Virus record (IMG/VR): IMGVR_UViG_3300020440_000013
Reading direction: 5' to 3' (one strand)
Length of the DNA stretch: 20,000 nucleotides
DNA from: an uncultured virus (IMG/VR IMGVR_UViG_3300020440_000013)
Taxonomy: Duplodnaviria; Heunggongvirae; Uroviricota; Caudoviricetes
In this document: positions 1,953-5,580 of the stretch, in pieces
Layout of the letters: every line of letters begins with the position of its first letter
Numbering within the stretch: the first letter of the stretch is position 1
Notes under the pieces: model-generated
The model's database searches: none
The model's input: only the letters and a program-made list of their open reading frames with translations
Told to the model about the DNA's origin: nothing
Program-made: the position numbers and the translations under genes

Positions 1953-3995
1953 ATGGATAAGAACTTAAACGTAATAGCAGAAGAGCTTTTTAATAAAATC
2001 AGGGGAAGATTCCCATCTGTAACAATTGGTAACGACGAAGGTAAAGTTACTAATGTACCTACCGAAGCTAGATTTTTTGATTTTAACTTTACAGAAGGGG
2101 CTAATGACTTAGGTAAAGTAAGTATTAGTTTAGAAGACAAAGCGATTGCTATAATGTATAGTAACAGTTTTATCACAGCAGAAGATACTTTAACAAAAAA
2201 CAAATGGTACGATTTTTTAAAAGAGATAAGATTTTTTGCTAAGAAAAGATTACTTAACTTTGATACAAGAGACATAACTAAGAGTAACTTAAACAAAAGA
2301 GATTATAAGTTTTTAGCATCAAATACCGGAGAGCAAACAATGTCAGAATCGAAATTATACGGAACAAGCCGTATTAGCTATCAGGATGTTGATTCAGCAA
2401 GAATAAACATTAGGCATAATAGATCAGTAAACCCTGATTTACCAGCAGGTAGAACACAATACATCGAAACAATTTACATAGAAAGTTCAGACGGTGAACG
2501 CTTTAAATATCCATACAAACATCTAAGTGGTGCAAGAGCAATGGCAAGACACGTTGCTGAAGGTGGCAAACCATACGATAAATTTGGAACACAAATTGTA
2601 GGTCTTAGTGAAGAATTAGCAAAACTTAAAAAATTTAAAATGGCATTAGGTCGTAATAACATTATGGCTGAAGGATTATCAGAATATACTAGTATTGTTA
2701 CAGATCGTATTGAAGAAATTAAAGAAGGTATTCTTGCTTTACAAACTAAAGAAGCATATGAAATTACAAAAGAAACATTTGAACATATTTCTGTAGAAGA
2801 GAAGACAACCATGCCTGATGAGACTGCTGCTAATTGGATTGATCAACTAACAGTAAAACAATTTAACGAAGAACTTAAAGATACTTTTCCTTTTGTATAT
2901 AGATTAGTAAAAGAAAAAACAACACCTAAAGAACTTAATAACATGGAAGATTTGTTAGGTGAAAATCAAATTGATGAAATTGCTGGTCCGGTAATAAAGG
3001 TTGCAAAAGAACTTTTTACAGCGGCAGGTTTTTCAAAAAAGATTGTAGCTGCACTTGCAACAGTAGGAGGTCTATTTGGACTTAAAAAGTTATTAGAAAT
3101 TACAAGTCTAAAAAATAGCCCATTAGGTAAAGCAATAAAAGCAAAATGTGATTCTGGAGACCCAACAACAATAGTTGACAGTAATGGTAAAGAATTAGGG
3201 TGGTGTGAGCACTATGATCTATTAGACTTATATGCAGAAGCAGATAACTTATCTATTTGGACATTACACTCAATAGTATATGATGACAGTCCTTATAAAA
3301 ATAATCCATATGTAATACGTAGACTGAATAAAGGTCAGTCAGATGAATCAAATGATACTATCGATGTAAAGTTTGGCAAAGACGGAAGTATGGAAAAAGC
3401 AGATGATAAACCTAAAATTCCAGTAAGTGAATTTATTTTATCATTGTTTGATAGAAACAAAGGTACTTTTCCAAAAGGTGAAACAGCAGTATTAACAGCA
3501 GTAGAAAAAGATTATGGCGAACAGTATATCAACCCTGCTAAACAGTTTATTGAAAAAATTACTACAAAGTTTGAAGAGTTAAACACAGAAGGCAATGCAT
3601 ACGCACACGCTGTAAGAAAAGCCAAAATGAATGGCAAGAAAAAAGGTGATGTAGTTGACGGCCCAGACGGCGACAAAATTGAATTAGAAAAGTTTGACCC
3701 AAGACAAGAACAAAGCCGTGAAGCTCAAGCAATGGAAGAACTAATGACAGCATATGAGCAAGGTGGCGAAGAATCCCTAGCAAAAGAAATGGGAATAACT
3801 ACGCAAGAACTTGATCAAGAAATCAATGAAATGGGTAGAGAACATAACTTACACCCAGACGATGATAGAGATGAAATTATCGAACGTGTTGTTGAAGCAA
3901 CAGTTGACAATGCTGATTGGGAAGAACAGTTTGAAGCTATGCAACGATTAGCTGGTTTAGACAGTCAAAAAAAAAGACTAACGAATCAAAGTTAG
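1953..3995 (+). CDS. Large acidic hypothetical protein (680 aa), possible prohead-core or internal virion protein
   Basis: Long ORF. ATG 1953 is preferred over TTG 1935 because it follows TAAATA. Glu-rich C-terminal half, ends ...MQRLAGLDSQKKRLTNQS. Function is inferred from context only. Confidence 0.75.
   Translation: MDKNLNVIAEELFNKIRGRFPSVTIGNDEGKVTNVPTEARFFDFNFTEGANDLGKVSISLEDKAIAIMYSNSFITAEDTLTKNKWYDFLKEIRFFAKKRLLNFDTRDITKSNLNKRDYKFLASNTGEQTMSESKLYGTSRISYQDVDSARINIRHNRSVNPDLPAGRTQYIETIYIESSDGERFKYPYKHLSGARAMARHVAEGGKPYDKFGTQIVGLSEELAKLKKFKMALGRNNIMAEGLSEYTSIVTDRIEEIKEGILALQTKEAYEITKETFEHISVEEKTTMPDETAANWIDQLTVKQFNEELKDTFPFVYRLVKEKTTPKELNNMEDLLGENQIDEIAGPVIKVAKELFTAAGFSKKIVAALATVGGLFGLKKLLEITSLKNSPLGKAIKAKCDSGDPTTIVDSNGKELGWCEHYDLLDLYAEADNLSIWTLHSIVYDDSPYKNNPYVIRRLNKGQSDESNDTIDVKFGKDGSMEKADDKPKIPVSEFILSLFDRNKGTFPKGETAVLTAVEKDYGEQYINPAKQFIEKITTKFEELNTEGNAYAHAVRKAKMNGKKKGDVVDGPDGDKIELEKFDPRQEQSREAQAMEELMTAYEQGGEESLAKEMGITTQELDQEINEMGREHNLHPDDDRDEIIERVVEATVDNADWEEQFEAMQRLAGLDSQKKRLTNQS
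3967..3975 (+). other. A9 homopolymer, candidate -1 frameshift or transcriptional slippage site
   Basis: CAA AAA AAA AGA in the 0 frame (A_AAA_AAA heptamer at 3968-3974). The -1 frame is open from 3935 to 4408. Confidence 0.6.
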
Positions 3996-4051
3996 CACCA
4001 AAATCCCCCGATTGGAAAACTGTTAAACTTTTAGGTGAAACCCTTTATATA

Positions 4052-4408
4052 ATGGGAGACGATATAGAGCACGTTATTGCTGCAGACGGTTTACCAATAT
4101 ACAATGGTTCTCGCACACAACTAATACGTTACGGTCAAACCAATATAGAAAAAGCAGGATACGGATATCCAACAGATTACACTCAAATAATGGACACTTG
4201 GATTAATAAAAATCAATATGATGAATTTCGAAAACTAAGAAGTTTATCAAACCCTAGTGATCGTATGCAGCTTGAGTATCTTAAACTATTACGTCCAAAG
4301 TTAAAAAATGTGTCAGGGATTGGACAAAAAATAGATAAATTATTAACATCAGCACCTTTTAAAGGATTTGATGTAGAAATTGATGATCCTACCTACGGTA
4401 ACGCATAG
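4052..4408 (+). CDS. Hypothetical protein, possibly the C-terminal extension of the upstream gene through a frameshift
   Basis: 118-aa ORF. The only SD-like GGTG is 14 nt from the ATG. The frame extends upstream without stops across the A9 run. Confidence 0.6.
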   Translation: MGDDIEHVIAADGLPIYNGSRTQLIRYGQTNIEKAGYGYPTDYTQIMDTWINKNQYDEFRKLRSLSNPSDRMQLEYLKLLRPKLKNVSGIGQKIDKLLTSAPFKGFDVEIDDPTYGNA

Positions 4409-4433
4409 ATTACCAAAAAAGATAAAAAATAGG

Positions 4434-4462
4434 TTGACTTTTACTAAATAATATCGTATAGT
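4434..4462 (+). promoter_or_regulatory. Sigma70-type promoter with a nested late TAAATA element
   Basis: TTGACT (4434-4439), 17-nt spacer, TATAGT (4457-4462). TAAATA at 4445-4450 lies within the spacer. Confidence 0.8.
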
Positions 4463-4541
4463 ATATATTGTGCTGTACATATAAAGGCACAAGTAGCAAT
4501 GTAGCTACTGCACATAGGCATAACAAATAGGAGGCATAACT

Positions 4542-5525
4542 ATGGCATCATTGGCAGAAATCAGAGCAAAACTGAAAGAACAAGAATCACGCACAGGTGG
4601 TTCTCAAAGCGGCGGCGGCGATAACGCAATTTACCCATTTTGGAATATCAAAGAAGGCGAGTCGGCAACGATGCGTTTCTTACCAGATGGAGATGACACA
4701 AACACTTTCTTTTGGAAAGAACGTTTGATGATCAAACTTCCATTTGCAGGAGTTAAAGGTCAAACTGACTCACGTCCTGTACAAGTACAAGTTCCTTGTA
4801 TGGAAATGTACGGAGAAGCATGTCCGGTACTACAAGAAGTACGTCCTTGGTTTAAAGATCCAAGTCTAGAAGATATGGGTCGTAAGTATTGGAAAAAGCG
4901 TTCATACGTATTCCAAGGGTTTGTAACGGAAAATCCACTTGCAGAAGATAGTGCTCCGGAGAATCCAATTCGAAGGTTTATTATTGGGCCACAAATTTTC
5001 CAAATTATTAAAGCGGCTCTTATGGATCCAGACATGGAAGAATTACCAACAGATTATACTGCTGGTGTAGACTTCCGTCTTAACAAAACAACCAAAGGTG
5101 GTTATGCAGATTATTCAACATCTACTTGGGCTCGTAGAGAGCGTCCATTAAGTGATGCTGAAATGAATGCAGTAAACACACATGGTTTGTTTAACATGAG
5201 CGACTTTTTGCCTAAGAAGCCAGACGAAGTGGCTGTAAAAGTCATTAAAGAAATGTTTGAAGCATCAGTTGATGGTGAAGCATATGACATGGATCGTTTT
5301 GGTCAATATTTCCGTCCAGCGGGAATGTCGGCAAGAACGGGTGATCCACAAAATAGAACACCCGAAGCAAGTACTCCTGCTCCGACGTCAGCACCTGAGA
5401 CAGCTACTACTCCAGCAGTAGAAACTGCAACGGCTCCTGAAGCACCAGCGGCTGAAGCGGCACCTGAAACAGGCAGTGGCGAAGCAAAAGATATCCTTGC
5501 AATGATTAGAGCAAGACAGTCTTAA
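4542..5525 (+). CDS. gp32: Single-stranded DNA-binding protein (T4 gp32-like)
   Basis: ATMRFLP, C...CPV, KYWKKRSYVFQGFV, IFQIIKAALMDP, GVDFRLNKTTKGGYADYSTSTW and a flexible C-terminal tail. Strong SD GGAGG. Adjacent to uvsX. Confidence 0.9.
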   Translation: MASLAEIRAKLKEQESRTGGSQSGGGDNAIYPFWNIKEGESATMRFLPDGDDTNTFFWKERLMIKLPFAGVKGQTDSRPVQVQVPCMEMYGEACPVLQEVRPWFKDPSLEDMGRKYWKKRSYVFQGFVTENPLAEDSAPENPIRRFIIGPQIFQIIKAALMDPDMEELPTDYTAGVDFRLNKTTKGGYADYSTSTWARRERPLSDAEMNAVNTHGLFNMSDFLPKKPDEVAVKVIKEMFEASVDGEAYDMDRFGQYFRPAGMSARTGDPQNRTPEASTPAPTSAPETATTPAVETATAPEAPAAEAAPETGSGEAKDILAMIRARQS

Positions 5526-5539
5526 TATAAACAAGATTC

Positions 5540-5559
5540 GTAGGGGAGCAATCCCCTAC
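5540..5559 (+). promoter_or_regulatory. Intergenic GNRA-capped hairpin (weak terminator or mRNA processing/stability element)
   Basis: GTAGGGGA-GCAA-TCCCCTAC is a perfect 8-bp stem with no immediate U-tract. Confidence 0.65.
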
Positions 5560-5580
5560 TAGCTTTAACAAGGAGAAAAT

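Follow-up and report, generated by a model that had tools for sequence, protein, structure and literature searches.

What is the product of a phage virion-protein gene when a run of nine A's stands 18 nucleotides (nt) before its stop codon and the open reading frame (ORF) that follows lies in the −1 frame? The locus that raises this question is found in a 20,000-nt stretch of DNA from an uncultured marine giant phage (hereafter the window; bases 14728–34727 of the 34.7-kb IMG/VR virus fragment IMGVR_UViG_3300020440_000013, which is estimated to be 9% complete), in which the gene of a virion-structural-like protein of 680 amino acids (aa) is followed by an ORF of 118 aa. A preliminary description of the window had proposed that slippage at the run carries the protein into the −1 frame, giving a second isoform of about 818 aa. 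We compared the length of the run in DNA and RNA data, and the results suggest that it changes at the level of the RNA. The features concerned are the following.

1953–3995, + strand: gene of the 680-aa virion-structural-like protein, from ATG 1953 in the 0 frame (686 aa if counted from a TTG further upstream, at 1935)
3948–3959, + strand: codons for L-A-G-L, the extreme C-terminus in nearly all relatives
3967–3975, + strand: run of nine A's (A9), the proposed slippage site, which contains the heptamer A_AAA_AAA at 3968–3974
3977–4051, + strand: linker of 25 codons, stop-free and reading TNESKLAPKSPDWKTVKLLGETLYI in the −1 frame alone, with neither promoter nor terminator
3978–3995, + strand: hairpin CUAAC-N8-GUUAG of 5 base pairs (bp), weak on folding and probably not functional
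3993–3995, + strand: TAG, the 0-frame stop at which the short isoform (...LAGLDSQKKRLTNQS) ends
4052–4408, + strand: ORF of 118 aa, which lies in the −1 frame of the big gene and makes up the main part of the proposed C-terminal extension

The A run in DNA and RNA

Twenty sequencing runs were found to hold the stretch, 15 of DNA type and five of RNA. The DNA-type runs, from seven studies, contain all (1.00) of the sampled 31-mers of positions 3300–4700, and the RNA runs contain 17–49% of them. The site itself was compared in the assembled contigs of two RNA runs (X16 and X17, both from one study) and two DNA runs (X3 and X14, from other samples). In X16 the sole contig over the A run (357 nt, 3696–4051, depth 33.1 of 33.1) had one additional A after position 3966 and was otherwise identical, and the same was seen for the sole contig of X17 (308 nt, 3774–4077, depth 48.6 of 48.6). 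The contigs of X3 (3705 nt) and X14 (3662 nt) crossed the run without an indel. Thus the extra A was present in the contigs of both RNA runs (2/2) and of neither DNA run (0/2).

Nine A's were also found in three IMG/VR contigs of different datasets (L001–L003) that are identical in this region, one with a single difference from the window in 7992 compared bases, and in one further metagenome contig (L109; ENA-type), the one record returned by a census of run length in Joint Genome Institute metagenome records. At the protein level, a collection of 15 billion proteins held the 680-aa form with the tail DSQKKRLTNQS in four sequence variants (129, 9, 2 and 2 contigs). For the 118-aa ORF on its own the counts were 142, 30 and more contigs. 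No fused form of ~818 aa was present in the protein cluster or among the near-length matches, in which it should have ranked second.

One extra A is exactly what restores the fusing frame. In the window the 0 frame of the 680-aa gene ends GAC AGT CAA AAA AAA AGA CTA ACG AAT CAA AGT TAG, with a run of exactly nine A's. The last stop in the −1 frame is at 3932–3934, and this frame is therefore open from 3935 to 4408, reads ...QSKKKTNESKLAPKSPDWKTVKLLGETLYIMGDD... and enters the 118-aa ORF, and the run, the stop and the open frame were all as first described. With ten A's (A10) the sequence becomes CAA AAA AAA AAG ACT AAC GAA, encoding QKKKTNESK in an open frame into the 118-aa ORF; the slipped frame has 143 codons after the run and stops at 4406–4408, and the fusion predicted from an A10 mRNA has 674 + 1 (Lys) + 143 = 818 aa. 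Its predicted trans-frame junction peptides are TNESK, LAPK, SPDWK and TVK, and a further predicted peptide, LLGETLYIMGDDIEHVIAADGLPIYNGSR, spans ATG 4052 and could come from the fusion only. The proposed continuation of the 680-aa gene into the −1 frame is thus supported by A10 in the RNA contigs versus A9 in all DNA assemblies. The interpretation as a whole was borne out in part: a single-base slip does reach the open frame, and of the mRNAs for the two proposed isoforms the RNA contigs showed A10 alone.

The run taken by itself is not beyond chance. It is the single A9 in the 34.7-kb record (the window has ten A7, two A8 and one A9), and a first-order estimate gives ~1.8 A9 per 20 kb; the chance of a stop-free −1 frame over the 25 codons between the run and ATG 4052 is roughly 0.03–0.16. 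A site scan found no promoter-like or terminator-like site between the 680-aa gene and the 118-aa ORF, and at 0.357 the GC content of the linker could be that of either coding or intergenic sequence in this DNA. The only Shine–Dalgarno (SD)-like word upstream of ATG 4052 is GGTGA, 14–18 nt away, confirming the poor placement noted before; as an argument against independent translation this is weak, since several other genes of the window also have no good SD.

The C-terminal motif, the extension and the relatives

The comparison set consisted of 80 related IMG/VR loci (560 kb), 68 of which have the complete 3′ end of the gene. In 64 of these 68 the protein stops 0–2 residues past the motif [IM][RK]xL[AS]G[LIVM], and the same near-motif stop was found in 113 of 119 database homologues; the typical family C-terminus reads R-[MI]-[RK]-E-L-A-G-L-(R)-stop (window 3945–3959; L005–L080; P0003–P0121). 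The codons for the motif vary, indicating that it is conserved at the protein level. The 680-aa form ends 11 residues past LAGL, and reading past the motif was seen in only two lineages among the 68 loci, the window's own clade (three contigs) and L004.

L004 is a distant relative, whose large terminase (terL) is 76% and whose N-terminal domain is 63% identical to those of the window. Its protein runs ...RELAGLDS into A10, with the 0-frame stop after KKKTS; a 69-aa ORF after the run could likewise be reached by the addition of one A, and no stop intervenes. This ORF is unrelated to the window's extension, and it had no relatives locally or among longer proteins and was found in no other IMG/VR contig. 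The Asp-Ser after LAGL is common to both lineages with different serine codons (AGT in the window, TCT in L004). Runs of at least nine A or T in the 80 loci were confined to these two junctions, to three other sites (open frames or intergenic promoters) and to one position near another gene end. Every copy of the window's lineage retains the run and its frame relation, and one distant lineage, L004, has them too; the other loci (64/68) have no extension. Scans for the motif-plus-run pattern gave 28 and at least 117 stretches, and among the matches listed similarity to the family was limited to the window's clade and the L004 contig. It is the position of the run, not its presence, that is beyond chance, since two independent lineages have at least nine A's just after the conserved C-terminal motif and there are few such runs in the 80 loci.

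Two further contigs have the reverse arrangement. L175 (reverse strand, ~790) has LAGV-TEKK with A10, and L144 (reverse strand, ~2501) has LAGI-QKKK with A11; in both the next domain is in frame, and one extra A would lead to a stop within one to three codons. These runs are possibly a mirror-image use of the same slip. Neither contig gave a BLAST match to the family; both were found by the motif and are placed in the family only by position. A different kind of run was seen in L057, where the ORF upstream of terL (...SHSKKKKK*) has A9 at 1732–1740, 7 nt short of its stop. A Lys-rich −1-frame continuation of 40 codons that contains CWTGYEKVPG follows, and this relative may have another slippage site here.

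Two proteins carry an in-frame module between two copies of the motif, namely P0125, a 913-aa variant of the window's lineage (DWEEQFEAMQRLAGL ... DWEEQFEAMQRLAGL), and the product of L175 (reverse strand, 1–1281; DDDQVRMRHLAGV ... DDDQVRMRHLAGV). With the second copy after the module, both still end in LAG[LV]. It looks as if the modules were inserted by recombination at the motif with a terminal copy retained, and the motif seems, on our reading of these sequences, to need a near-terminal position. Such a need would make sense of extending only part of the molecules.

As judged from the searches made, the 118-aa ORF is an ORFan of the window's phage lineage. It belongs to no Pfam or PHROG family, and tblastn of the ORF and of the 143-aa extension against phages gave no homologue. 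Among the 80 related loci it was found only in the three identical contigs, and a further IMG/VR scan gave the same three. A HMMER search over 1.84 billion representatives with the ORF and the extension found only the query itself, the ESM Atlas had no usable match to either, and among 90% clusters at near length there was only the ORF's own cluster, so that its relatives are limited to copies at least 96% identical. The AlphaFold model of the extension had a predicted local distance difference test (pLDDT) score of 40.9 and was unusable.

The place where the ORF lies, between the virion-protein gene and the gene of the gp32-like single-stranded-DNA-binding protein (SSB), is an insertion hot spot. 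The gp32 gene is directly next, 113–178 nt away, in 53 of 66 loci, and in the remaining 13 unrelated lineage-specific ORFs intervene (L007, L027, L040, L045/48/49/54, L058 and L076 among them), with insertions of up to 2.3 kb (L040). In L007 and L058 the inserted ORFs are coupled by a TAATG stop-start overlap. In relatives, A tracts resembling AGTCAAAAAAAA also occur between the genes, just 3′ of the stop.

Proposed transcriptional slippage and its alternatives

A nine-base run of A or T is a classical slippage substrate of bacterial RNA polymerase. We propose that at this site the polymerase realigns the nascent RNA at the nine A's (nine T's in the template) and adds one A. Ordinary translation of the resulting A10 mRNA would give ...LAGLDSQKKK-TNESKLAPKSPDWKTVKLLGETLYI-MGDD... 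up to the stop at 4406–4408, and the unslipped A9 mRNA would give the 680-aa form. Both mRNAs would coexist, part of the protein copies carrying the extension; the long protein would be made and enter the virion, where those copies would present an additional, lineage-specific module. We give transcriptional slippage producing the fused isoform a probability of roughly 0.6. The longer version of the protein is probably made, and we infer that the extra A was put in by the polymerase rather than by a local genotype or a complementary DNA (cDNA) artefact.

Several observations favour this mechanism, which was one of the two named in the preliminary description. It fits A10 in the RNA contigs versus A9 in the DNA, and the A9 at the frame junction is a homopolymer of the length, about 8–9 or more A or T, that is looked for in transcriptional slippage. 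According to PMC5009743, slippage in vivo is highly efficient on runs of nine A or T, and in Thermus dnaX mRNAs with one or more extra A's are made, giving ~50% of each product; in PMC3711429 programmed transcriptional realignment is described as using An with n>7. RNA-polymerase slippage, a mechanism that needs no RNA structure, is the best reading because the sequence beside the run showed none able to stimulate ribosomal frameshifting; folds on either side were no better than shuffles. The 100-nt region of the hairpin had a minimum free energy of −12.6 kcal/mol, where its shuffles averaged −13.1 (z 0.19), and the upstream fold gave z −0.12; the hairpin described earlier at 3978–3995 was recovered by folding, but it has only 5 bp in a region that folds no better than its shuffles.

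The same 818-aa product would result if the main route were a programmed −1 ribosomal frameshift on A_AAA_AAA (3968–3974) of the A9 mRNA, which could also add to slippage. The heptamer fits X_XXY_YYZ in the correct phase and is among those that PMC3711429 names as implicated. The other mechanism of the preliminary description nevertheless did not hold up well, as it leaves the extra A of the RNA contigs unexplained and lacks a stimulator: the weak hairpin begins only 3 nt after the heptamer, and there is no SD-like word in 3940–3966. We regard ribosomal frameshifting as the main route as quite unlikely. An error of sequencing or assembly, with a genome that is truly A10 and has one continuous 818-aa gene, is very improbable. 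Homopolymers are error-prone and the RNA contigs do show A10, but this explanation has to contend with A9 in the window, in the three IMG/VR contigs, in the further metagenome contig and in the two DNA runs of different studies taken from Logan. The same condition had been raised in the preliminary description, and all DNA assemblies in which it was checked read A9. The split protein forms, moreover, are each recorded in over 140 contigs of many sources, with no fused form.

A more serious rival holds that there is no recoding at all, the 118-aa ORF being a gene of its own from ATG 4052, the A9 incidental (for example left over from an A-rich stretch before the gp32 promoter of relatives) and the A10 of the RNA a local genotype or a cDNA or assembly artefact. 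Much of the setting would suit this explanation, in that the spot is a hot spot where 13 of 66 loci have unrelated extra ORFs, two of them started by TAATG overlap, and A tracts follow the stop in relatives; the A9 is compositionally ordinary, an open linker has a chance of ~0.03–0.16, SD-less genes are common in the window, and neither the HMMER representatives nor the 90% clusters contain a fused homologue of the 118-aa ORF. What it does not account for is A10 in 2/2 RNA runs against A9 in every DNA assembly examined, and a homopolymer artefact would not normally be the sole contig path at depths of 33 and 49. Nor would it lead one to expect that the distant L004 repeats motif, run and frame relation with a different ORF, or that the DS after LAGL is kept by different serine codons. 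On balance we think this account improbable, if less so than the two above.

Other points weigh against transcriptional slippage itself. Both A10 RNA runs are from one study and from samples other than those of the DNA runs, and a local A10 genotype, that is, a true fused gene, is possible there; reverse transcription or PCR can also add homopolymer indels. The comparison was of contigs, which drop minor variants, and the two RNA runs gave no A9 contig. A10 could have prevailed in both assemblies only with slippage above ~50%, which is more than the 25–30% given for Shigella spa13 and at the top of the range given for Thermus dnaX (PMC5009743), and Escherichia coli RNA polymerase is described in PMC6260861 as less prone to slip on runs of A than on runs of T. 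The searches made gave no homologue of the extension in which coding upstream of ATG 4052 might be seen to be conserved. The RNA contigs end at 4051 and 4077 and leave 4078–4378 uncovered, a gap in contigs that speaks neither for nor against. With many genes of the window lacking an SD, independent translation of the 118-aa ORF is possible. Finally, the arrangement is rare, being found in two lineages among 68 loci.

If slippage does occur, a wider view may be considered, in which an A run after LAGL is a general, evolvable docking device that, by slippage above 50%, appends any lineage-specific ORF that has arrived in the hot spot between terL and gp32 to part of the protein copies in marine jumbo phages. 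Newly acquired ORFan modules could then be tried on the virion without loss of the normal C-terminus, and in the in-frame lineages L175 (A10) and L144 (A11) a slip would restore a short isoform ending soon after LAG[VI]. We offer this view tentatively and consider it unlikely.

The virion protein, its neighbours and known systems

In the 680-aa protein a conserved N-terminal part (~330 aa) is followed by a variable region, then by a conserved module at ~490–534 and by the C-terminal LAGL. Residues 28–271 match phrog_13484, 'virion structural protein' (E 1.4e-16), and together with the conserved position after terL this places the protein in that jumbo-phage virion structural family. In tblastn, residues 10–330 matched the virion proteins PA5oct gp278 and 121Q gp5 with 27–28% identity (1e-28 to PA5oct-like phages), and 4008 homologues were found at E≤0.001. 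The PA5oct and 121Q homologues are annotated as structural, that of PA5oct with a note of electrospray ionization tandem mass spectrometry; it is the annotation of these cultured homologues that suggests its presence in the virion. Its AlphaFold model (mean pLDDT 61.9) had no Foldseek match in the PDB at E≤0.001, and a profile search of PDB sequences gave only noise at E 0.026. The order of modules is permuted in relatives (e.g. L020 5510–6115, L023 and L060), and in several of them the segment matching window residues 552–661 precedes the one matching 481–550. A LysM domain was present in the variable region of four of 38 aligned family members, and L015 has a run of 24 A's (1893–1916) within the conserved N-terminal part of the family gene that is probably an assembly artefact.

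The unit formed by the big gene and the 118-aa ORF has the following neighbours.

358–1938: T4-type terL, identified by Pfam and PHROG family searches
4434–4462, + strand: sigma-70-like promoter TTGACT-17-TATAGT, which serves the gp32-like SSB gene and is the downstream limit of the unit

Family searches of the same kind placed genes for the gp32-like SSB, UvsX and UvsY downstream of the 118-aa ORF, and a TTGAC-containing region lies directly 3′ of the big gene in relatives too. The order terL, virion protein, SSB, UvsX, UvsY is that of the jumbo phages 121Q (genes 4–8) and PA5oct; the nearest cultured relatives are PA5oct-like phages, with a terL identity of 53.6%, and blastn of the window DNA (34.6% GC) against phages gave no match. 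The word TAAATACTT occurs in two exact copies only on the + strand, at 347–355 and 1939–1947, which sit 11 and 14 nt 5′ of the ATGs of terL and the virion-protein gene respectively. A role as a T4-late-type promoter or leader motif is possible; when a single mismatch was permitted, the count did not exceed that in shuffles. A GC-rich, terminator-like inverted repeat, gtaggggagcaatcccctac, lies at 5540–5562 directly 3′ of the gp32-like gene.

Transcriptional slippage is established in dnaX, spa13/mxiE, tssM and insertion sequence elements. To our knowledge, nearly all known recoding in tailed phages is ribosomal frameshifting, affecting tail-chaperone genes and a few capsid or tail genes, and within the coverage of our full-text literature search no productive transcriptional slippage was described in a structural gene of a tailed double-stranded-DNA phage. 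The mechanism is thus known, and what is notable here is a discrepancy between RNA and DNA in public data, of just the kind that would fuse two annotated genes. If it is confirmed at the level of reads and protein, gene callers split a real 818-aa virion protein of a phage widespread in marine metagenomes (more than 140 contigs, and 15 DNA runs of seven studies). Giant phages would then have, in homopolymer slippage, a means of adding new ORFan modules to their virion proteins, and A-run sites at gene ends of AT-rich phage genomes would merit systematic comparison of RNA with DNA.

Among known systems, Thermus thermophilus dnaX (tau/gamma) resembles the present case in its nine-base homopolymer, in the added A's and in an N-terminus common to two products, and it slips with high efficiency with no RNA stimulator, as proposed here (according to PMC5009743). 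It differs in that its long product is read in the 0 frame and slippage truncates, whereas here slippage would lengthen; dnaX is, moreover, a cellular replication gene, unlike the late virion-protein gene of a phage. Closer in layout is the dnaX of Chlorobi, which is described as two ORFs with A10 (PMC3711429). In Shigella flexneri spa13 two ORFs are joined through slippage on an A/T run, at 25–30% and with an extension of 112 aa (as given in PMC5009743), and transcriptional slippage is likewise described as giving length variants of Shigella mxiE and Citrobacter rodentium tssM. These are genes of bacterial secretion systems in which the downstream part is conserved and needed, in contrast with the ORFan part attached to the phage gene. 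PA5oct gp278 and 121Q gp5 share a homologous N-terminal part of ~320 aa and the gene order with the window, but have no LAGL motif, A run or trailing ORF. In the T7 capsid pair 10A/10B a C-terminal extension is likewise gained by recoding. Lambda gpG/gpGT is similar in that one isoform gains a C-terminal part from another frame (described in PMC5009743). Unlike these, the window's gene encodes neither a capsid protein nor a tail chaperone, and whereas both T7 10A/10B and lambda gpGT rely on ribosomal frameshifting at heptamers, here the RNA itself appears to be changed.

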